Origin: Candidatus Doudnabacteria bacterium
GTDB lineage: Bacteria > Patescibacteriota > Doudnabacteria > UBA920 > O2-02-FULL-48-8
DNA: 45,788 nt
Direction of reading: 5' to 3'
Assembly (NCBI GenBank): GCA_016186915.1
Contig: JACPKU010000007.1
Coordinates: 1-45,788, forward strand
Shown here: positions 13,324-24,022 of the stretch, piece by piece
Position numbering within the stretch: position 1 is the first letter of the stretch
How the letters are laid out: every line of letters begins with the position of its first letter
The notes under the pieces: model-generated
Databases searched by the model: none
What the model saw: only the letters and a program-made list of their open reading frames with translations
What the model was told of the DNA's origin: nothing
Translations under genes and position numbers: made by a program

Positions 13324-15357
13324 TTATATATTTATTTTGCCTTTACTTACCACACTATAACAAAAAATACCCAACATGACAAAGCCTATCAAATCAAAAT
13401 TATACTTGACTCCCGTGGTTGGCAAACTAACTCCTTTGACATCGCCTCTTTCGGCAATCTGATTTTCTTTTCCTGGAGTAATTACCATACTCCATCTAAA
13501 CTCGCCATCCTCGTCAAGGTTATATGATTGATTTTTCAGCGCGTCCTCATACTCTATTTCTTGCATGATTTTATCCTCAGGATCAATCAAACGCACTGTT
13601 TCCTGACCTGAATTATTCAATGCTATTTTACTAACAGACTTGGTAACAAACCCAATTTCTCCAGGCTCTAATACTAAACTTGTTATGGTATATTTGCTCG
13701 CGTTGTCTGCCAGAACCCAGCCAGTCAAATCAGCGACCTCCTCTCCTGTATTTTTTAACTCGATAAATTCCTCGACACCGACATCTGGTTCAGGAAAAAT
13801 TTCATTGATCAAAATTTTAGTAGGATCAAAACTTGCTGTTTCGGCTTCAAACAAATTCGGCTCCTCTGGCGTGGGCGTGGTCCAAGTCCAAACGCCATCC
13901 TCGTTTTTGGCATAACTTAAATCCTGGATGGCTCCCTCATAACTTACATTGTCAATCAAGGTTTTATCAGGCCAGAACAATCTCACCGTTTCTTTCCCGG
14001 TATTATTTAGCGCAAACTTGCCGGCCGGAATTATGATGATAGCCAATCCGCCCGGCTCAATAATCGGGCTTTGAATTTGGTAAGCGCTACTGCCAATAAC
14101 TGCTTCCACCTCACCATCATCCAAAATCCAGCTATGCAAATCCACAACCATGTCTCCGACATTCATTATTTCCACCCATTCATTGCCGCTGTCCTGCCCG
14201 GAAGGATTGGGAAATATTTCATTCAACTTCACTTCTTTATAGGTAACCAAAGATTGTTCTGCTTGTTGTGTCTCTTTTGAAGAAGAATCTGAACCGTTTG
14301 GTACGGACACAGGAAATTTGTTTGAAGCGCCTTTAGTAACAATTGAAGTCCAAGCGTAGCTGTCATCATCCTTTCGAGCATAAGTTTCATCTGAAGAAGC
14401 GGAGCCGGTATAAGTTACCAAACTCACAAGCTGTCCATTGGGCCAAAATAAACGGACCTCGTCTCCGCCAGAATTATTAAGCGCGAAGCTGCCTTCCGGT
14501 AAATCGATGGCCAAATAGCTTTCTGGTTTGATGACTAGGTTTTCTAAAGTGTAAGCGCTGGAACCAATCTCGCCACTTTCCGAATCATCGTCTAAAATCC
14601 AGCCAGACAAATCTACTTGTGCGTCAGATGAATTAAAAAGCTCGATCCATTCCTCCCCGCTGTCAATCCCGTCTGGATTGGGCAGAAACTCTGAAATAGT
14701 TACACTTGATGAATACTGGATGGTGGACGGAGGATTTGTAGTAGGCTCAGAGGGAGAGGGTTGAGGTGAAGGCGCCTCTGGAGCAAAAGACGAGTTGCGA
14801 GGATTGGGGTCAGCCAAGACAAAATCAAGGCTGTTATTGTTTGTGTCATCGCCGAAACGTAACAATACTTTTTCGGATTCCGGCAAAGCAGCGCTTGATC
14901 CTTCCGGAGAATTATTTTCCGAGCCGCCGTAAGCTAATTTATCTACTATGTTCGGATCCGTTCCTGATTCGACAAACTGATTATCATTCACCAAAAAGAT
15001 GGTGCCGCCGCTCCCAGCACCTGAAAGACTAAAACTAGCATGCACATGGTCAGCCGAAACTGCACCATTATAATCACTGCGCGCAATCAAAAAATATCCA
15101 TGCGCCAGCACTGTGGTATCAGGCAAATTTTTCTTGCCGGTTGTAAGGGGAAAATCGCCGGACGCAGATTTGTATTGAATTGACCAGCCGATCAGAGATA
15201 CGGCCTGACCCGTTGGGTTGAAAATTTCAATAAATTCATCGTTCGCGCCATTATCGCCGCTCACTTGAACCTGACTGATAACCAGGTGGTTAGTCGCTGC
15301 CAAAACCAAAATCGGACTGAATAAAGCCAGCCCTAAAATGTATGCTATTTTTTTCAT
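13324..15357 (-). CDS. Secreted protein with four lamin-tail domains and an LPxTG-like sorting signal
   Basis: Repeated I(S/N)E..PNP.G.D..EW(I/V)E..N....VDL.GW.L; C-terminal LPTTG, hydrophobic stretch, Lys tail. Confidence 0.85.
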   Translation of the reverse strand: MKKIAYILGLALFSPILVLAATNHLVISQVQVSGDNGANDEFIEIFNPTGQAVSLIGWSIQYKSASGDFPLTTGKKNLPDTTVLAHGYFLIARSDYNGAVSADHVHASFSLSGAGSGGTIFLVNDNQFVESGTDPNIVDKLAYGGSENNSPEGSSAALPESEKVLLRFGDDTNNNSLDFVLADPNPRNSSFAPEAPSPQPSPSEPTTNPPSTIQYSSSVTISEFLPNPDGIDSGEEWIELFNSSDAQVDLSGWILDDDSESGEIGSSAYTLENLVIKPESYLAIDLPEGSFALNNSGGDEVRLFWPNGQLVSLVTYTGSASSDETYARKDDDSYAWTSIVTKGASNKFPVSVPNGSDSSSKETQQAEQSLVTYKEVKLNEIFPNPSGQDSGNEWVEIMNVGDMVVDLHSWILDDGEVEAVIGSSAYQIQSPIIEPGGLAIIIIPAGKFALNNTGKETVRLFWPDKTLIDNVSYEGAIQDLSYAKNEDGVWTWTTPTPEEPNLFEAETASFDPTKILINEIFPEPDVGVEEFIELKNTGEEVADLTGWVLADNASKYTITSLVLEPGEIGFVTKSVSKIALNNSGQETVRLIDPEDKIMQEIEYEDALKNQSYNLDEDGEFRWSMVITPGKENQIAERGDVKGVSLPTTGVKYNFDLIGFVMLGIFCYSVVSKGKINI

Positions 15358-15429
15358 ATTTGTTTCTCCTCCTAAAAATATTTATATGTTAAATATATAA
15401 TCAGTATTCTCCGGGTTTAAATAGTCCCG

Positions 15430-15894
15430 CTATTTTCCTTTTTCTTTTTTCTTTTCCATTGCTTCGCCTTTTTTCTTTTCTTCTTCTGGCAGGTCCTTAT
15501 ACAAAGTGCCCAAAACACCGTTTATAAACTTCCCACTGCTTTCTCCTCCAAATGTCTTGCCCAACTCCACTGCTTCGTTGATTACCACTTTGGGCGGCAC
15601 TGATTTGGCAAACATTAACTCATAAATGCCAAGCCGTAGGATGTTGCGATCCACCACTGTGATCTGATCCAGTGGCCATTCCGGCGCTGTTTTTACTATT
15701 ATTTCATCAATTTTGGGCAAATTATCTTCGACACCTTTAAGCAAATCAAAAATAAAAACAGGATCTTCTAATCCCGGGCCAAACTGCTTAATGTTGTATT
15801 CTGCAATTTCTGCAAGCGGTTTGACTCGGTCGTTGAAGTCCCATTCGTAAAGACTTTGCATCGCAATTGTTCTGGAGAGATGTCTGTTGGCCAT
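15430..15894 (-). CDS. nusB: Transcription antitermination factor NusB
   Basis: [53 protein letters not shown]. Confidence 0.96.
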
Positions 15895-15896
15895 AC

Positions 15897-16097
15897 CTAA
15901 CTTTTGACTTTTGACTTTTGACTTTTGAGTTTCAATACTTGCTTGCCTTTGTAGTAGCCGCAGTTGGTGCAGGCCTGATGAGGCATCGCTGGGTATTTAC
16001 AATTCTGACAAATGCTGAGATTGATCTTGCTTAGAGCGTCGTGCGATCGTCTTTGGTTGCGCGAGGATCTGGTTTGTCGTTTTTTAGGTACTGGCAT
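15897..16097 (-). CDS. rpmF: 50S ribosomal protein L32
   Basis: [19 protein letters not shown]...PH.AC..CGYY; C-terminal tail encoded by a (TCAAAAG)n repeat. Confidence 0.95.
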
Positions 16098-16202
16098 AAG
16101 GTTAGAATATAGAATGTTGAATGTAGAATATGGACTGTTAATTTATAGCATAAAAAGTTGTGCGAGTCAAAAAAATTACCCTTATATCTCTTTTCTTAGC
16201 GA

Positions 16203-16458
16203 GGAATTCCTGCGAAATTAGCCTTCGGAACCCTGCCCGCGGCAGGGTGAGAACGCAGGGAACGTCTGACGTTCCAGGCTGCGTTTCGTAGCAACGAAAC
16301 GACAGCCGTTAATTTCGCAGGAATTCCGAGCGCTCCCAGGCAGCTGCCGACGAACAGGAGACCAGCGCTAGTTTTGCAAATAGTACTGGATTCGTCGACA
16401 GGTGTCTGAAAACGGGATGGAGAGAGCGCAAGTGCGGTTAAGCTACCGCGCTCTCTCC
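16203..16458. ncRNA. Putative structured RNA/ssDNA domain at the end of cassette 1
   Basis: Perfect 18-bp stem GGAATTCCTGCGAAATTA/TAATTTCGCAGGAATTCC (16203-16220/16310-16327) enclosing three hairpins; GGAGAGAGCGC/GCGCTCTCTCC stem at 16409-16458. Confidence 0.6.
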
Positions 16459-16469
16459 TTGAACGCACC

Positions 16470-16733
16470 TCACGGATCTGGTTCGTCAGCCAGGCCGAAA
16501 GGGACGTTATTGCAGTCCGGGTCTTGCTCGCACTCGGCCAGCGCTTTCTCCATCTTGCGCTGGAAGCGCTGGTCAGGCGTGCGGACTGCTTCGAGCTCCT
16601 GACGCACCTCCTCGCTGGGATTAGGCGCGAGCAGTACAAGCAACGCCCCTATCACCAGCAACGAGACGACCGCCGCAATCACCCACGCGAGCACGCTATT
16701 GCCTTGGGGCGATCCAACGATTTCGCCTCGCAT
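16470..16733 (-). CDS. Orphan single-TM protein (87 aa), cassette 1
   Basis: Start reassigned to the ATG at 16733 behind AAGGGGG; TM helix then charged helix and CxxxxxC. Confidence 0.65.
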   Translation of the reverse strand: MRGEIVGSPQGNSVLAWVIAAVVSLLVIGALLVLLAPNPSEEVRQELEAVRTPDQRFQRKMEKALAECEQDPDCNNVPFGLADEPDP

Positions 16734-16746
16734 AGTTTGTCCCCCT

Positions 16747-16860
16747 TTAGAGCAAGGCCGCCGCGACCACAATGATTGCGATCACGACGATGGCGCCAAC
16801 TACGTACTTGGCCCGCCCTGACTGCTTGGGCGGTTCCGGGTTCAGTAGGATCGACGGCAT
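16747..16860 (-). CDS. Orphan 37-aa membrane peptide, cassette 1 (not in ORF track)
   Basis: GGGAGG-aaaca-ATG; MPSILLNPEPPKQSGRAKYVVGAIVVIAIIVVAAALL. Confidence 0.6.
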   Translation of the reverse strand: MPSILLNPEPPKQSGRAKYVVGAIVVIAIIVVAAALL

Positions 16861-16871
16861 TGTTTCCTCCC

Positions 16872-17036
16872 TCAGTGTACCGTTGGCCGACCCAACGGAT
16901 GAAAACAAACGCGAATGACCACGTCCTCGAGTTCTTGACGCTCAAGCGCGATCTCGTCGCGACTCAAACGCTTGGGACCAGTAGGACCATATCCGAACCT
17001 CGCGAACTTGTTTGGGACGTCAGGACCCTTTTGCAT
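16872..17036 (-). CDS. Orphan 54-aa protein, cassette 1 (not in ORF track)
   Basis: AGGAGG SD; MQKGPDVPNKFARFGYGPTGPKRLSRDEIALERQELEDVVIRVCFHPLGRPTVH; tiles head-to-tail with the next two ORFs. Confidence 0.6.
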   Translation of the reverse strand: MQKGPDVPNKFARFGYGPTGPKRLSRDEIALERQELEDVVIRVCFHPLGRPTVH

Positions 17037-17106
17037 ATAATGGTCCTCCTACACCTCCACAATATAAGATACTTTGAGAATTCATACAAGCATCCTAAAT
17101 TCCAAA

Positions 17107-17395
17107 GGCTTCTCCCGCCGCTAAGCTTGAAGCTCAAGCTCACTGGCGGGAGAAGATCTGAAGTCTTGGGGGACTATCAGATCTCCGTGAAGTTTCCTGG
17201 CGGGGGCCAGTGTAAGCTGGCAGCCTGCGTTTGAAACGCAGTTAGGAAACCTCGGTTTGCCGGTGGATTTTGTGGGTCCCCTATCACCGGCAGGTGGGCG
17301 AACTCCGACGGACCGAGCAGCCGGCCTTGGCGTCAAGTCGAATGACCCGAAGGCCAAGCGCCAAAAGCGCTGCGACAGCGAGAAAGGTGCATAGC
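17107..17395 (+). ncRNA. Putative structured RNA/ssDNA domain at the end of cassette 2
   Basis: Consecutive stems CTTCTCCCGCC/GGCGGGAGAAG, AGATCTGA/TCAGATCT, GTTTCCT/AGGAAAC, CTCGGTTT/GGACCGAG (G-U on +), TGCCGGTG/CACCGGCA, GGCCTT/AAGGCC. Confidence 0.6.
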
Positions 17396-17420
17396 TCAGC
17401 CATCGGACTCCTCCTTCGCC

Positions 17421-17636
17421 TCATCCGAGCCTTCTTTTCCAAACCAACCAAGCGCCGACAACGCCTGGCAAGTATACGATGGCAGCCTCGACAAAGACTG
17501 CCGTGACACCCCAGCCGAGCCCCAACTTAGGCTCCAGCCAGAGCCACAGCGGGTCGTGAACATCGCCGATGGGTCCGCCCTGAAAGGCGAATAGAAAGCC
17601 GGATAGTGCGAGCAAAAACACACCCAGAATTTGCAT
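17421..17636 (-). CDS. Orphan 71-aa two-TM membrane protein, cassette 2
   Basis: AAAAGGAGGA-cttg-ATG at 17636; hydrophobic with a basic WKRR C-terminus. Confidence 0.7.
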   Translation of the reverse strand: MQILGVFLLALSGFLFAFQGGPIGDVHDPLWLWLEPKLGLGWGVTAVFVEAAIVYLPGVVGAWLVWKRRLG

Positions 17637-17854
17637 CAAGTCCTCCTTTTGCGTCCACAATTCAGGATATTTATTCTAAGAAGTTCTGTGAGACTAAAAT
17701 TACTTGATTCTCTCTTAACTTAAATAAATATCCTACTTTTGCGGAAACAAACTAGTTTGCAAGAAGTTTAATCTTTCAACTAACAACTGTCAACTGTCAT
17801 TTCCGATCCTCTGACCTCCACTTCAATACGTTAAAGTATTAAAGTGAAGCCCAA

Positions 17855-17986
17855 GGGAAGGGAGGCTGGACGAAACGCAGTGAAGCGAATCGACCAGCCA
17901 TACTAAGAGGGATCTGTGCGCGGATATGGAATCCGCACAGCGCGGTCACCTTCTTCACGATGTCCACCGGGCGGTGGATCAAGCCG
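17855..17986 (+). ncRNA. Conserved structured element, copy 1 (homologous to 19022-19165)
   Basis: Three-hairpin fold with compensatory changes relative to copy 2. Confidence 0.7.
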
Positions 17987-18239
17987 TCGGGTGGTAAATG
18001 AACCCGCCCAGGTTGTCGGGACTGCACGAGCCGTCGCATACCCCCTTTGGCTCGAACGAGATGTCCTCTGCGTAGCTCACGTTACCGTCCTGGTCGAACC
18101 AGACATGGATCAACCAATCAACGTGAGAGTGGCCGTCGCAACCGTAATTCCTCTGGACTTCCACCTTGCCGAGGCCACCGCGGACATCAGCAGGCTCCTT
18201 GCTCTCCACCTCAACTCCGTAAATTCGGTAACCGTTCAT
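17979..18239 (-). CDS. Orphan 86-aa Cys/His-containing protein, cassette 3
   Basis: AAAAAGGAGGA-cagc-ATG at 18239; CDGHSH...CDGSC possible metal site; a 26-codon uORF (18236-18316) overlaps its start as ATGA. Confidence 0.7.
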   Translation of the reverse strand: MNGYRIYGVEVESKEPADVRGGLGKVEVQRNYGCDGHSHVDWLIHVWFDQDGNVSYAEDISFEPKGVCDGSCSPDNLGGFIYHPTA

Positions 18240-18334
18240 GCTGTCCTCCTTTTTTGCTCGGGTTTGCTCGGGCGAGCGATATTTCGGGCACACTGGTCGC
18301 ACACCTTGTCCTCCATAACTTCTCTGGAACCATT

Positions 18335-18379
18335 CCCTCCCAGAAAATTCCAATTGCTTGAAATGCTCTGGGAGAGAAA
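18335..18379. repeat. 45-bp imperfect palindrome at a cassette boundary; second copy at 20732-20776
   Basis: CCCTCCCAGAAAATTCCAATTGCTTGAAATG(C/T)TCTGGGAGAGAAA, 44/45 identical. Confidence 0.9.
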
Positions 18380-18432
18380 AAGAATTGATTTGATTTTTAA
18401 ATAACAATAAATTATACTAAGATTACTAACTT

Positions 18433-18690
18433 ATGAAAAGACCGAAGATTGCTCTGAGCCACCACGCACATTATCAGATCAAGGAACGGAAACTGTCAAT
18501 TCAGAAAGTCAAAGCAGTCGTTCTTAGTCCAGACAAAGTCACAAAGCAACCTGACAACCGCTTCTTGGCTTACAAACTAGTTAAACGCTCTGATAAAGAT
18601 TATCTGTTAATCGTGATTTATGAACAAACCAACTCAAGGCTTAAAATCGTGACCACATTCTTAACCTCTAAACTTCGTAAATATTTATGA
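18433..18690 (+). CDS. DUF4258-like (RelE-fold) putative toxin
   Basis: LSHHA..QIKERKLS...V..V..SPD...LLIVIYE....KIVTTF. Confidence 0.75.
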   Translation: MKRPKIALSHHAHYQIKERKLSIQKVKAVVLSPDKVTKQPDNRFLAYKLVKRSDKDYLLIVIYEQTNSRLKIVTTFLTSKLRKYL

Positions 18691-18902
18691 AATTCCATTA
18701 CGATAAAAAAATTGACGCTCTCTCTATCCGTTTCAATGACAAACGGTATGTTGAGTCTGACCAGGTTTCGGATGACATCATCTTTGATTATGACAAGCAA
18801 GGACATATCATCGGGATAGAAGTGCTTAATGCTTCCAAACGCTTCCCCAAAGAATTTCACAAACAACTTCATAATAAGCTAATTCCAGTCCAAACCGTCT
18901 AA
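18687..18902 (+). CDS. DUF2283-family protein (putative antitoxin)
   Basis: MKFHYDKKIDALSIRF...DDIIFDYDKQGHIIGIEVLNASK; ATGA overlap with the upstream gene. Confidence 0.85.
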   Translation: MKFHYDKKIDALSIRFNDKRYVESDQVSDDIIFDYDKQGHIIGIEVLNASKRFPKEFHKQLHNKLIPVQTV

Positions 18903-18982
18903 GCAAGGCGCCTGCCCGCCAAAGCTCGAAGAGCAAAGGCGGGGTTTTAATTTATCAAAGAACTTTCCCTTCCTCTACGCTC

Positions 18983-19012
18983 CACTTATAATACGTTAAC
19001 GTATTATAAGTG
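18983..19012. repeat. Perfect 30-bp palindrome; degenerate copy at 17819-17846
   Basis: CACTTATAATACGTTAACGTATTATAAGTG vs CACTTCAATACGTTAAAGTATTAAAGTG. Confidence 0.85.
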
Positions 19013-19021
19013 TAGAACAAA

Positions 19022-19165
19022 GGAAGGGGCTGGACGAACGAATTGCTTGCTGTCCAGCTGCGTTGGTAGGGACTTGTGCGCGAGCAGGATGCTCGCACAG
19101 CGAGGTCACCTTTCACGATGCTTGCCGAGCGGCAGACATCGGCTGGTTTTCTGGTCCAGCAACCA
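19022..19165 (+). ncRNA. Conserved structured element, copy 2
   Basis: GCTGGAC/GTCCAGC; GACTT..CGAGC-AGGAT-GCTCG..AGGTC; CGATG-TGCC-GAGC-GGCA-CATCG. Confidence 0.7.
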
Positions 19166-19167
19166 CT

Positions 19168-19794
19168 TTAGTGCCTCCTGCTAACCACGTAGTTCACTCG
19201 CACTTGGGAACCGGCCGGCAACTTCTGGAACCACAGTTCCACACTGCCGGCCTGGTTGAACTTCACCGTTCCCGTGACGAACGGCTTATGCTCCCAAGCC
19301 TGATCCCCGAACTTGTAGGCGGCGTAGCCCGCACCCGCCTTGAACCGGCCAAAGTCGTACTCGAGCTTCGCCCGGTCGAGAACGTGCTGGATACGTGCAA
19401 TTTTGTTGATCGGCACGTACAGCAGATAGTTGGCCTGCGCGCTCACCCGCTCGGTCAGTTGGAACAGTCCGAGCACGAACGGTTGGACGTATCGCTCGGA
19501 TGTTCCCGGACTGATGGCCTGAACAAAGTAGGTCTCGGCCACCAACGCCATCCGCTTGGCAGGCGTGAGCACTCGGCCGGCACCGACATACAGCTCACGA
19601 TAAACGTCAGAGCCGAAGTCAATGTAGCCAAGATCCCAGGCCACCGTATTGCCTCGAGTCTGATAGACCTCAAGCAACCGATATGTATGGCCGTCGGAGT
19701 TGCCAGCGATGCGGAACTCCGCACTGGTTTCGGTCTGCGCGAAAAGCTGCACAGGCAGGCTGATTACAAACAGAACAACAAGGATTCTGGTCAT
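19168..19794 (-). CDS. Secreted protein resembling an outer-membrane beta-barrel, cassette 4
   Basis: GGAGG-caagc-ATG at 19794; signal peptide (..QLFA|Q); alternating hydrophobic beta-strands rich in Tyr/Gly. Confidence 0.65.
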   Translation of the reverse strand: MTRILVVLFVISLPVQLFAQTETSAEFRIAGNSDGHTYRLLEVYQTRGNTVAWDLGYIDFGSDVYRELYVGAGRVLTPAKRMALVAETYFVQAISPGTSERYVQPFVLGLFQLTERVSAQANYLLYVPINKIARIQHVLDRAKLEYDFGRFKAGAGYAAYKFGDQAWEHKPFVTGTVKFNQAGSVELWFQKLPAGSQVRVNYVVSRRH

Positions 19795-20299
19795 GCTTGC
19801 CTCCATGCGCTTTCGCGCCAAAAAAGAACGATCTAGTTGCTTCCACAATCTTGAACACTTTATTTAAGCATCAAAAATTCTGGAAACAATATTCTCCCTC
19901 ACCCCCGTCCCCTCTCCCCTGAGGGGAGAGGGGAGTTCTAATTTGTAAAAATCATTTGCACAACTCTGGGTGCTAAGAAACTTCTTGGAACTATGGTACT
20001 GAATAATTTTCCTGTTTAACTGCTAACGCCCAGAATGGTGGAAACCAGCCTTCTCCCGGACTTGATCCGGGGTTGGACTGATAAGTAAAATGTATATACA
20101 AAAGTATATACACAGATATAACTTTTTTAATGTTCGATCATATAATATTGTATTATACTTAAATACTGTAAAGTATTTAAGTTTTTCCGATCCTCTGCCC
20201 CGAACCAAATGGTTCTGGGGCAAGGGAAGGGAGAGAGACGGGATTTACTCAATCAAGAGTGTCAACCATCTCTCTTCTTCACACACAAACTTCCTCCAA

Positions 20300-20662
20300 T
20301 CATTTCTGTGATCGGCCCGCTGCTCTCGTCCTGAAGTACTGGACGAGCATGGGCAGAACAATGAGTAGTCCCAACATCCTCATCGCATTGCCGATCAAAT
20401 CGTACTCCGGCCAGAATGAGATGGTCGAACCGACAACCATCCCGACCGCGCCAGTCCAGAAAACCAGACAGGAGAACATGATCTCCGGGACTGTCGCCAG
20501 AGCGCCGCCATACCCGAGAATCGGGAGGCCGTTACTCAAAAGCTCTCCCGACCAGCCCGCAAGAAACGGGAAGTCTTGGATCACCCGTGGGTGACCCACG
20601 AAGAACCCGATGAAGACCAGCACAACGCCGAACTTCAACAAAGCCTTAGCACAGCGGTCCAT
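20300..20662 (-). CDS. Orphan multi-TM membrane protein (120 aa), cassette 5
   Basis: GAGGTG SD; three to four hydrophobic segments, basic C-terminus. Confidence 0.7.
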   Translation of the reverse strand: MDRCAKALLKFGVVLVFIGFFVGHPRVIQDFPFLAGWSGELLSNGLPILGYGGALATVPEIMFSCLVFWTGAVGMVVGSTISFWPEYDLIGNAMRMLGLLIVLPMLVQYFRTRAAGRSQK

Positions 20663-21302
20663 ACTCTATCACCTCGCGCATTATTCCCACGCCTTTGGCG
20701 GGGTCAGCGCAAAAAAGAACGATCTATTCCTCCCTCCCAGAAAATTCCAATTGCTTGAAATGTTCTGGGAGAGAAATACCTATAAATTTTTGAGCGAGGG
20801 TTGTCTGCGAAAAAAGAATCTCGGAGCTGAAACCGCTTAGTTCCTGCGGTTACAGGGAGAGCTTAGCGGCAAATTTTGCGTCCAGTAAAATTTGACCTCG
20901 TCTTTTTTCACAGACACCCGAGCGTTATTTCCACAATTCTGGGCACTGCTGTATGCAAGTGTACGGGCATAAAAAATATGGTTATCCCTCTTAAGCATAA
21001 GTTGAATGCCCAGAACAGTGGAAACAATAACGCGGGATGGCGGGCAGGTTAAACCTCACTTGTCCGCCGAAGTCCCGCAAAGCGGGACGTAGGCGGATAG
21101 AGTGCCCAACATCCGAGAAGCAAAAAATCCCTTGTTCAGGGACTATTCTAGCTCTGCTATAAGCTATCAGCTAAAAGCTATAAGCTTACGGCTTCCGTCT
21201 CCTGAACGGAAAATTATATATAGTAACCCTTCGATTTCGCTTCGCTCCGCTCAGGGATCAAATGTTGCCTGAGCTTGTCGAAGGCGATCATGTAAGGGTC
21301 TA

Positions 21303-21348
21303 TTTTCAAAGAACAGGCAAGTATATACCAAAATCGCAATCTTGTCAA
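21303..21348 (-). promoter_or_regulatory. sigma70 promoter followed by a boxA-like antiterminator, pointing into the cassette array
   Basis: On the - strand: TTGACA-17-TATACT-tgcct-GTTCTTTGAAAA. Confidence 0.75.
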
Positions 21349-21435
21349 CCCCTTTAGAGTAAATATTGGCTAATATAAGCCAATATTTATCTTTTTGATA
21401 TAATAAACCCAAGACCCCAAAGGAGGATATTCGCG

Positions 21436-22239
21436 ATGAAAAGACTGTTGCTTGTGCTGGCACTGACAGTTGGTGCCATGCAGGCACCAGTTGGACAGGA
21501 ACAAACGCCTGAACCGAACCGCATCAAGCGGGTGCCAGAAGACACGCGAGACTGGGTGAATGCCTACTTCCCGCCCGAAGTCATGGAAGTGCTTTGGCTT
21601 ACTGACTACGCTGCCTTAGACCAAGCCTATGAGAACGGCTGGCTGGTTGATATCCCGCAAAACAGCGACCCCTTGGCAGAAGCTCTGGGGATTCGATTGC
21701 AGACAGAAGGCGACTTCCCCATTGCCGAAGCAGAACCCGATCCCAAGCTTAAGGTCAAGCTCTTCCGCCTGGCCAAGCCTGGGGCAGGCTTGCTCTACTC
21801 GATCGCTGATCATGTGCGAGAGGAAGAGAGAAAAGAACGAGAAAGAAGAAAGCTCCAACCAAGGCCGTTCTTGCCCATCGGCGTTACAAGCCTGGTCAGA
21901 ACGGCAGAATACCAAGCCCGCCTGATTCCTCTCAACGCTAACGCAGATACAGAGAGTCAGGGCGTACCAGCGACCCACATAACTGGATTGGTGACTGACA
22001 TCACGCGCGCGAACATGACTACAGCGCGTGATAGAATCGTCTCTAACTATCTGATCGAGCTTAGAGACGCTGATAAGATCCTTTACTTCCGTGAAGGGGC
22101 CAAACAGGCCACCTACCACGTGATCGCACTCCTGCAAACCCGCGAATTCTTCGAGGCCGAGTATGACCGACTGCTCCTTAAGGCCCGGGAACGAATGGCC
22201 GCCGAGGCACAAGGAACAATCGAAAAGCCGAACGACTGA
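21436..22239 (+). CDS. Secreted DUF5715-like / peptidase M15 (LAS)-type Zn protein
   Basis: AAGGAGG SD, signal peptide, VTSLVRT.EYQ..L...N.NA....PATHITG...DI (H-x6-D) and TYHV; hairpin plus T-run terminator at about 22224-22260. Confidence 0.7.
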   Translation: MKRLLLVLALTVGAMQAPVGQEQTPEPNRIKRVPEDTRDWVNAYFPPEVMEVLWLTDYAALDQAYENGWLVDIPQNSDPLAEALGIRLQTEGDFPIAEAEPDPKLKVKLFRLAKPGAGLLYSIADHVREEERKERERRKLQPRPFLPIGVTSLVRTAEYQARLIPLNANADTESQGVPATHITGLVTDITRANMTTARDRIVSNYLIELRDADKILYFREGAKQATYHVIALLQTREFFEAEYDRLLLKARERMAAEAQGTIEKPND

Positions 22240-22336
22240 CTCGCTCGGCTTCTTTTTTTTACAGATTATTGAAACGAGGAATAGTTGCAAAATTAGCCTG
22301 CGCAGGACAACGGTGATTATGCAACCTATTCCTAAG

Positions 22337-24022
<1,686 letters not shown>

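Follow-up and report, generated by a model that had tools for sequence, protein, structure and literature searches.

How does a very small bacterial genome come to hold, between two housekeeping genes, a row of genes far richer in GC than the genome around them? This question is raised by the rpmF-groEL locus of a Candidatus Doudnabacteria bacterium, a member of the candidate phyla radiation (CPR, Patescibacteria). The stretch analysed, hereafter the window, is contig JACPKU010000007.1 of assembly GCA_016186915.1 with 45,788 nucleotides (nt). It is contig C5 of a 727,988-bp genome in 7 contigs, which is reported to be 97% complete and has a GC content of 0.45-0.47 (about 0.46). Within the 6.2 kb between rpmF and groEL the GC content of 200-nt windows swings between 0.56-0.63 and 0.33-0.47.

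An earlier note on this DNA had described the region as an array of five structured gene cassettes with GG...CCA ends under one promoter plus boxA. It had offered three interpretations: replicon-like or satellite RNAs, an integron-like cassette collection mobilised in trans, or messages meant for export to a host. With confidence evenly balanced, we regard the region as a lineage-specific, integron-like cassette platform with non-canonical attC-like sites, belonging to one Doudnabacteria family. A conserved promoter and leader, co-oriented and mostly promoterless open reading frames (ORFs) of foreign composition, hairpin families bound to this locus, and changing genes between kept flanks are observed. 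Recombination at the hairpins, and the enzyme that would carry it out, are proposed by analogy. We describe the array as possibly working like an integron rather than as an integron, because it lacks two defining features, the integron integrase IntI and canonical attC cores.

Conserved ends and a variable middle

Searched with NusB, 26 of 31 related genomes yielded the locus. Of 19 loci from relatives, 14 have rpmF and groEL on either side of a patchily GC-rich gap of 947-7356 nt, and four further genomes have gaps of 3.7-9.8 kb (up to 9829 nt). When the proteins encoded by the gap ORFs of 15 arrays were compared all against all, only about 10 shared families emerged, with 30-88% identity. 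The flanking genes of same-genus pairs align end to end at 71-78% nucleotide identity; the gap sequence common to these pairs consists of short repeats and two ORF-sized stretches only. Cassette content at the rpmF-groEL locus does vary between genomes, a check that the earlier note had proposed. Since the promoter with its leader and the D hairpin next to rpmF are kept, both ends of the platform are conserved and the middle alone varies. Variable content, co-oriented and locus-bound structured boundaries and a conserved promoter at one end fit the idea of an integron-like collection without an integrase of its own. About 0.9% of this genome is taken up by the array, which in relatives extends to about 10 kb.

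An assembly artefact was considered and ruled out: contigs from two independent groundwater studies cover the array at 100% identity, and the same architecture recurs in more than 20 genomes.

The genes of the arrays are strongly co-oriented. Among the ORFs preceded by a Shine-Dalgarno site in 20 arrays, 122 lie on the rpmF/groEL strand versus 24 on the opposite one. Their codon positions follow GC1>GC2<GC3, as in real genes, and GC3 mostly falls at 0.6-0.88, compared with a genome GC of 0.46. Read in the sense of the ORFs, a unit opens with a hairpin of type B or with a 46-nt repeat, followed by a short stretch that often contains GTTCTTT and by a Shine-Dalgarno site with one or more ORFs. 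The 3' half consists of a GC-rich 3' part and a hairpin of type A, and an AT-rich linker leads to the next B element.

At the groEL end, the TTGACA-17-TATACT promoter of the earlier note is present on the minus strand and is followed by the boxA-like GTTCTTTGAAAA (21314-21303). The leader further contains a hairpin with the loop TTCAGGAG at 21195-21209 and a terminator-like hairpin at 21128-21142 with a T run at 21122-21127. A TTGACW-N16-18-TATACTT promoter occurs at the groEL-side end of 10 of the 20 arrays searched. The motif downstream of it is similar in 7 of these 10 and reads exactly GTTCTTT in 4; likewise, 7 of the 10 have, ahead of their first B element, one hairpin whose loop reads YTCAGGAS and another that resembles a terminator and comes with a T run. 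The arrays L032, L033, L035, L036, L039 and L040 have this leader layout before the first B element. GTTCTTT recurs within the arrays, after the promoter and after hairpins: 14 arrays hold 25 copies on the ORF-sense strand and 7 on the other, with 4.0 +/- 1.9 in shuffles. As judged from the sequence, a single promoter thus appears to read into co-oriented, promoterless cassettes, as in integrons.

At the opposite end, rpmF has its own TTGACT-17-TATAAA promoter on the minus strand (16135-16165) between the array and the gene, so that the array transcript need not feed rpmF-nusB. The array promoter and the divergent gene c6 are separated by an operator-like palindrome, TAAATATTGGCTAATATAAGCCAATATTTA, at 21360-21390; in L030, L032 and L040 similar TTGGCTAA..TTAGCCAA palindromes occupy the same place.

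Hairpin families between the genes

The B element was picked by motif in 31 copies from 11 arrays, all in a single orientation. Its plan runs from TTCCAC-AAY-TCTGGGTRC through a variable tip (about 20-110 nt) to GYRCCCAGA-AYN-GTGGAAAC. When folded, this gives an outer box of 6 bp and an inner box of 9 bp, separated by a 3-nt spacer that is partly mismatched and includes a constant mismatch, with the variable tip beyond the inner box. As far as the available part of PMC4889954 defines integrons, clusters of attC sites lacking integrases (CALINs) and their sites, an attC consists of an R box, an unpaired central spacer, an L box and a variable terminal structure. The B element has this folded architecture; extrahelical bases were not identified in it. 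Its 3' end (ORF sense) lies about 5-25 nt ahead of the next Shine-Dalgarno site.

Pairing of the B stem has been kept through sequence change. In 22 aligned copies the 17 pairs of the outer stem are paired in 85.3% of cases, versus 32-46% with a slid partner, and 11 of the 17 pairs change on both sides. Compensatory cells number 34 versus 12.5 +/- 2.7 in shuffles, and none of 500 shuffles was as high. Examples of variants that keep the pairing are TTCCGC/GCGGAA, CATTGGG/CCCAATG and TCTGAAT/ATTCAGA.

The A element follows the plan TCCGATCCTCTG, variable hairpin, CAAGGGAAGGGAG, with three short helices split by constant 2x2 and 1x1 mismatches. Covariance models of B (R1) and A (R2) were used for searches; their E-values are rough, the copies used for building match by construction, and related genomes are not independent samples. 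Of 25 family genomes, R1 matches 21, and in 20 of these the matches form a single cluster beside groEL or rpmF. The exceptions are a weak match on another contig (G012:C10, E 0.004) and a single weak match in G032 (E 0.003), the position of which was not recovered. In all 9 genomes with nusB on the same contig, the better-scoring B strand is the one opposite nusB. R2 matches 12 of the 25 genomes, and all 24 rows lie inside arrays. Across the wider order, B occurs in this family (19 of 24 genomes), in a second (3 of 9), weakly in a third (2 of 70) and in three others not at all (0 of 17); a strict exact-pattern scan of contigs returned two records only, both from Candidatus Doudnabacteria. The genome-wide motif search that the earlier note had suggested places the exact motifs of the window's own genome at this locus only.

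Between genera, stretches of 41-88 nt in the elements share 86-96% identity, more than groEL DNA does. ORFs with just 38% protein identity are followed by a 55-nt element with 93% identity. The B copies of L030 (4662-4756) and L033 (5902-5993; both in oriented gap coordinates) come from different genera; their 68-nt tips are 95.6% identical and their outer arms differ in a compensatory manner. The pair gives the impression that tips have moved from one hairpin stem to another. In G013 and G034, whose arrays are long, B copies are confined to the promoter end.

Such recurring structures might also be selfish miniature repeats of the miniature inverted-repeat transposable element (MITE), repetitive extragenic palindrome (REP) or Correia type that happened to build up in an island gained by horizontal transfer. 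Similar size (50-150 nt), terminal inverted repeats and sequence families would agree with this. We nevertheless consider it very improbable and reject the MITE/REP reading on account of locus restriction and single orientation: apart from two weak matches the elements occupy one locus per genome. Moreover, a Y1/HUH transposase is absent and no target-site duplications were noticed.

Folding was assessed as a z score against dinucleotide-matched shuffles, with RNA parameters unless DNA is stated, for 19 elements of the window. Fifteen of them have z <= -3.1 on at least one strand; the four that fall short are the 3' parts of cassettes 4 and 5, the hairpin 19893-19940 and the B element 19951-20050. 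The lowest value is that of P1 on the minus strand (-11.0; -12.4 with DNA parameters), and controls averaged -0.2 (30 random 100-nt windows) and -1.0 (16 windows inside cassette ORFs). Hence the excess of folding expected at the proposed ends is present, as are steps in GC content. Inter-ORF gaps of the family arrays have a median z of -3.43 (n=37, 62% below -3) versus -0.86 for tandem-gene gaps elsewhere in the genome (n=52, 8% below -3; Mann-Whitney p = 3e-7), a comparison somewhat weakened by unequal gap lengths (median 118 nt in arrays versus 70 nt elsewhere).

The blocks described in the earlier note can now be related to these elements. High GC (0.56-0.63) is found in 200-nt windows at 16200-17000, 17100-17650, 17850-18300, 19000-19800 and 20250-20700. 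With a 300-nt window and GC >0.56 the blocks run 16194-17060, 17071-17669, 17794-18327, 19000-19830 and 20288-20745, and the five segments of the note are recovered almost to the base. GG is preceded by CAA or CAAA in four of five blocks (17107, 17855, 19022 and 20224, not at 16203), and the closing TCCA/TCCCA stands at 17055, 17654, 18335, 19841 and 20732. All five blocks hold one to three minus-strand ORFs with GGAGG-type Shine-Dalgarno sites. The dense stem-loops reported after GG are strong in cassettes 1 and 2 (z -4.9 to -11) and moderate in cassette 3 (-3.6), but weak in cassette 4 (-1.1/-2.7) and absent from cassette 5 (-1.0/0.0). Consequently, the structured layout holds for three of the five units. 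The term orphan is apt for the ORF of cassette 5, which matched itself, and not for that of cassette 4, which has 23 relatives.

The GG ends are the right arm of element A (CAAGGGAAGGG) and not free-standing signals; the TCCA ends belong to the left arms (TTCCAC / TCCCTCCCAG) of B elements or of 46-nt repeats. This bears on the proposal that the units are genome-encoded RNA replicase templates or discrete satellite RNAs, which had drawn on their dense structure and on GG...CCA letters of the Q-beta type at the plus-strand ends. We give it practically no chance, since these letters lie within hairpin arms conserved as DNA repeats across genera and the coding sense is on the opposite strand. The 97%-complete genome also lacks a match to RNA_replicase_B (PF03431) or RVT_1, a weak blank for the replicase because the control genomes gave no match either.

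In total, the window contains three A and four B elements, two copies of the 46-nt repeat, the palindromic elements P1 and P2 and the terminal D hairpin (Table 1). Left arms related to P1 also occur at 20790 and 22272. The D motif is found at the rpmF-proximal end of six other arrays (L032, L033, L035, L036, L037 and L039), seven in all; in L032 a terminator-like T run follows the D hairpin. The degenerate B-like hairpin before cassette 1 folds with -19.8 kcal/mol, reaches z -3.1 on the minus strand only and is not detected by R1. The B element in front of cassette 2 abuts the Shine-Dalgarno site of that cassette with its 3' end (ORF sense), and the right arm of B 19951-20050 is common to L032 (two copies) and L039. 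The A element of cassette 3 is 91% identical over 67 nt to a copy in L039, from another genus, and that of cassette 4 shares 91% identity over 46 nt with L035. In the ORF sense, GTTCTTT follows copy 2 of the 46-nt repeat (20714-20720, minus strand) and the short B element (19823-19829, minus strand). An Rfam scan of 15000-23000 gave four matches at E<=1, all of miRNA/snoRNA type and far under gathering scores, and no matching family.

A candidate recombinase and the weight of the integron-like reading

If the region is a cassette platform, the hairpins B, A, P, D and the 46-nt repeat would act like attC, as single-strand recombination sites in folded form, and cassettes would be inserted, excised or exchanged at them. 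The recombinase would be one other than the integron integrase. The sole genome-encoded candidate is a single Xer-type tyrosine recombinase; alternatively, an enzyme might act in trans. The promoter, the boxA-like motif and the leader terminator would express the row conditionally. The elements probably also shape mRNA, since their ORF-sense strand folds slightly better than the complement.

Searches with PF00589 found one intact Xer-type gene in this genome, on another contig (C4:354124-354984; match at C4:354418), and one broken remnant on C7. The intact gene scores 144 bits with the integron integrase profile TIGR02249 (cut-off 265) and lacks the middle part of that profile, and it passes an XerA-type model (239.5 versus 220). 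It is present in 23 of 25 family genomes. The genome has no Y1/HUH transposase (no PF01797 match), no serine recombinase and no reverse transcriptase (RVT_1), and profile searches found no recombinase, reverse transcriptase or HUH gene in the window, where the earlier note had seen no integrase, transposase, reverse transcriptase or RNA-dependent RNA polymerase. A dif-like 28-bp site was not recognised in the elements, and a search of the rest of the genome for the short palindrome TTCCAC-N-GTGGAA gave one unconvincing match. The remnant (G000:C7:30484-30784, L002 about 1317-1623) retains no more than its N- and C-terminal pieces; near it lie two small genes (L002 2315-2823) that resemble a toxin-antitoxin system.

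Several results weigh against the platform reading. No match to TIGR02249 in the genome reaches the cut-off, and PF00589 detects no tyrosine recombinase in or beside the array in 25 family genomes; on the four contigs that carry both the array and the Xer-type gene, these are 60-131 kb apart. Complementary RYYYAAC/GTTRRRY pairs at 50-150 nt spacing on either strand are absent from 14 arrays (0 versus 1.0 +/- 1.2 in shuffles). Cassettes are bracketed by two element types, B in front and A behind, with an AT-rich linker. Strain-level relatives were not found, the closest NusB in metagenome contigs being 85% and then 79% identical, and the flanks of "same genus" pairs are still only 71-78% identical, so that they yield no turnover rate. 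Circular junctions were not seen in assembled contigs of public runs. Finally, the ORF-sense strand folds better in 15 of 22 B elements (p 0.03) and in 11 of 16 A elements (p 0.07). In integrons the recombined strand is the bottom strand, and the asymmetry leans towards a role in RNA.

A joint 19011->20155 was noted in one contig of run X2 (depth 54, 26-letter side). It links the AT palindromes of two A elements and would remove cassette 4 and two B elements, but it is too weak to count.

The strand asymmetry leads to the main rival. Possibly, though we hold this only tentatively, the hairpins act at the RNA level alone. The region would then be one long, conditionally antiterminated operon with processing, stabilising or translation-control structures that isolate each gene, and gene content would change by transformation with homologous or illegitimate recombination and not by site-specific events. 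This has real support. Besides the better folding of the ORF-sense strand, the non-Watson-Crick cells of the B stem comprise 37 A.C versus 22 G.T on the plus strand; an A.C there is a wobble pair on the transcribed strand, which is suggestive and not decisive. Each element ends right before a Shine-Dalgarno site, and the hairpin arm in L033 contains the next one. The strand bias of the reiterated boxA-like GTTCTTT, the conserved leader terminator and the position of nusB next to the array point the same way. However, an RNA role alone leaves unexplained why up to 21 genomes have the elements at a single locus and at no other, why unrelated foreign genes lie precisely between conserved arms, and why the outer boxes have conserved mismatches, which are typical of protein recognition sites. 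The two readings are compatible with each other.

The lack of an integrase could also mean that the array is a decayed classical integron, a CALIN, that has lost its integrase and whose attC sites have drifted. The promoter, the co-oriented cassettes, the hairpin sites and the internal toxin-antitoxin pair match the integron scheme of PMC4889954, and most CALINs have no recognisable intI pseudogene nearby, according to the available part of that source. We nonetheless judge this origin improbable. Even when stop codons were read through, IntI or a remnant of it was not found in or near the array in 25 family genomes. Furthermore, the sites are not drifting, as they are highly similar between genera and change in a compensatory manner; canonical cores are absent, as the earlier note had stated for the boundaries; and the ends of the platform are conserved across the family.

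Cargo of the array and its place among known systems

Table 1. Features of the rpmF-groEL region in window coordinates (z, folding score, plus/minus strand where two values are given; R1 and R2, covariance models of B and A).
Feature	Position	Strand	Remarks
nusB	15430-15894		just beyond rpmF; next to variable gap in relatives
rpmF (L32)	15897-16097	-	from ORF list; conserved flank, distal array end; adjoins variable gap in relatives
P1	16203-16330		128-nt palindromic element with 18-nt perfect arms; z -10.3 (+), -11.0 (-)
D element	16338-16408		CTGCCGACGAACAGGAGA...TCGTCGACAG; terminal hairpin beside rpmF; z -2.7/-4.2
Cassette 1	16470-17036	-	ORFs 16872-17036, 16747-16860, 16470-16733; two with predicted membrane helix; GC about 0.60
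Degenerate B-like hairpin	17045-17110		CTCCACAAT...; directly upstream (ORF sense) of first ORF of cassette 1
Cassette 2, 3' part	17107-17283	-	GC-rich, structured; inverted repeat; z -4.9 (+), -8.1 (-)
Cassette 2	17284-17636	-	two small membrane-type ORFs, 17421-17636 and 17284-17406
B element	17648-17753	+	attC-like hairpin; R1 60.4 bits, E 6e-13
A element	17798-17869	+	TCCGATCCTCTG-hairpin-CAAGGGAAGGGAG; 3' end of cassette 3; R2 76.1 bits
Cassette 3	17870-18239	-	ORF 17979-18239, 86 amino acids (aa), Cys-rich, and 3' part
46-nt repeat, copy 1	18334-18379		hairpin, reads like a permuted B element; z -3.4/-5.5
Toxin-antitoxin pair	18433-18902	+	opposite strand; low GC; DUF4258 18433-18690, DUF2283 18687-18902
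A element variant	18962-19033	+	3' end of cassette 4; perfect stem and 28-bp AT palindrome; R2 65.2 bits; z -8.1/-7.9
Cassette 4	19034-19794	-	ORF 19168-19794, 208 aa, signal peptide, predicted 12-strand beta-barrel, and 3' part
Short B element	19836-19892	+	R1 26.9 bits, E 1e-3
B element	19951-20050	+	R1 63.4 bits
AT palindrome and A element	20155-20239	+	A element 20182-20239; 3' end of cassette 5; R2 54.5 bits (20182-20238); z -7.1/-8.7
Cassette 5	20300-20662	-	120-aa membrane ORF, orphan
46-nt repeat, copy 2	20731-20776		98% identical to copy 1
P2	20790-20922		palindromic element; z -4.4/-4.1
B element	20924-21030	+	first after leader; R1 77.9 bits, E 1e-17
Leader	21031-21312	-	boxA-like GTTCTTTGAAAA (21303-21314); z -5.4/-6.4
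Promoter	21320-21348	-	TTGACA (21348-21343)-17-TATACT (21325-21320); reads into array
c6	21436-22239	+	secreted, 267 aa; divergent from array promoter; DUF5715 26.6 bits (cut-off 26.8)
groEL	22337-23992	-	conserved flank at promoter end

None of the cassette ORFs, that of cassette 4 included, matches a Pfam family above cut-offs, and PADLOC gave no match for 10 array proteins. The ORF of cassette 3 has a relative with 36% amino acid identity in the L040 array, and the 3' part of this cassette contains two hairpins that share CGCACAGCGNGGTCACCTT with cassette 4. The ORF of cassette 5 matched only itself in two very large protein libraries, apart from one weak repetitive match. The low-GC pair on the opposite strand has the features of a type II toxin-antitoxin system: DUF4258 (29.7 bits, cut-off 25) and DUF2283 (69.1 bits, cut-off 23) are Pfam matches, and the two genes overlap by 4 nt. 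A terminator-like hairpin lies beside them at about 18905-18950.

The cargo of cassette 4 is different. The structural model of its protein has 12 strands at a mean predicted local distance difference test score (pLDDT) of 90.1. Foldseek matched it to 4fqe (E 5e-7, template modelling (TM) scores 0.63/0.75) and to 63 PDB chains at E<=0.001, mostly barrel porins, with KdgM, OmpG and NanC as the best PDB matches. Together with the signal peptide, the closed barrel in the 12-14-strand range suggests a porin. CPR cells are not known to have an outer membrane, which makes a porin-type barrel an odd cargo. Relatives of the protein come from Acidobacteria and at least five CPR groups; the boundary motifs were not found beside those in other CPR orders. 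The gene forms an island of high GC in three CPR genomes (GC 0.55-0.62 versus contig means of 0.44-0.52), and in most Acidobacteria contigs its GC is at or slightly below the contig value. In a midpoint-rooted tree the sequences from CPR and Acidobacteria intermingle and those from Doudnabacteria group together in a single clade with good support; this rooting gives no direction of transfer.

The predicted outer-membrane fold of this protein is also the only hint at export to a host, as the earlier note had offered; we treat this as speculation. A bolder form of the platform reading, which we find rather doubtful, sees an integrase-independent integron analogue. Here, the rpmF-groEL locus would be a landing pad for genes from GC-rich neighbours or hosts, set between hairpins by Xer acting on folded single strands and expressed behind a boxA/NusB antitermination leader. 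Given the porin cassette, Acidobacteria would then be a likely source of genes, and cargo such as the porin might act on the host. Cassette genesis would be caught in the act in a 0.7-Mb epibiont.

Among the neighbouring genes, c6 does not encode a recombinase. It is present beside some arrays only, with relatives next to L030, L033, L066, L070 and L072. The gene at 13324-15357 (minus strand) encodes a protein of 677 aa that has four lamin-tail (LTD) domains as well as a membrane anchor at its C terminus. The synteny HU-LTD-nusB-rpmF beside the array is conserved, and the protein shows weak likeness to the extracellular nuclease ExeM; it may be part of DNA uptake. Elsewhere in the genome (G000:C6:46583 onward), the 16S rRNA gene contains an insertion-like, AT-rich stretch of TTTTCAA repeats about 80 nt after its start; the contig ends within the gene.

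Four kinds of known systems invite comparison. Templates of leviviral (Q-beta) replicases are highly structured and have GG at one end and CCA at the other. The units of the array resemble them in structure and in having GG and CCA ends on one strand, but their ends belong to DNA repeats, their ORFs are antisense and a replicase was not found in the search with the silent control. REP elements, bacterial interspersed mosaic elements (BIMEs) and Correia repeats are short, structured and intergenic, like the elements of the array, and affect mRNA stability or termination. However, they are dispersed in both orientations, whereas the array elements share one locus and one orientation in a genome without a RAYT/Y1 gene.

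Xer-dependent elements are the third kind. XerCD integrates a folded single-strand hairpin with a mismatched centre of the CTX-phage type, and pdif modules occur on Acinetobacter plasmids. By analogy, the platform might likewise rely on a housekeeping Xer acting on accessory DNA with a folded single-strand hairpin as substrate, as in CTX. The difference is that the array elements have no recognised dif-like 28-bp site; an action of Xer on them is put forward as an analogy.

A full-text literature search (excluding supplementary files) found no paper in which integrons or attC cassettes, as understood here, are connected with Doudnabacteria, CPR or Patescibacteria. The accessible part of a paper on horizontal gene transfer (HGT) in Patescibacteria contains no mention of integrons or cassettes, and a survey of HGT in aquifer Patescibacteria (PMC12455944) lists, in the part at hand, the chaperonin gene groS as 'horizontally acquired'. 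Islands beside groES-groEL might contribute to such calls. Integrons are the textbook device of bacterial gene capture, tied to IntI and to mid-sized genomes, and the origin of their cassettes is unexplained. If the platform reading is true, an ultra-small CPR lineage shows that the architecture of integrons arose, or has persisted, on the basis of other machinery. The capture step itself would be open to study, as foreign GC-rich genes stand between native AT-rich sites, and the array would point to how reduced epibionts sample the genes of their neighbours.

Integrons themselves are the fourth kind, and the array differs from them in several ways. IntI is missing from the genome and the family. 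The core boxes are TTCCAC/GTGGAA and TCC..TCC/GGA..GGA, whereas the canonical attC consensus is RYYYAAC/GTTRRRY. Two element types bracket each cassette, in contrast to one attC per cassette in the classical integron. The platform sits anchored between housekeeping genes, with conservation at both ends, and its cassettes have a far higher GC content than the host genome. Complete integrons were not found in the genome size class of 0.73 Mb in the survey of PMC4889954, as far as its available part reports; the genome of the array has this size. The likenesses concern the whole plan. As in sedentary chromosomal integrons and CALINs, one promoter at the end stands before a row of small, co-oriented and mostly promoterless ORFs, the functions of which are unassigned. 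The row holds a toxin-antitoxin pair, as is common in large chromosomal integrons, and its content differs between relatives. As in integrons, too, the sites of the array are imperfect palindromes in which a mismatched spacer parts two paired boxes and the tip varies, and they end just before the next ORF.

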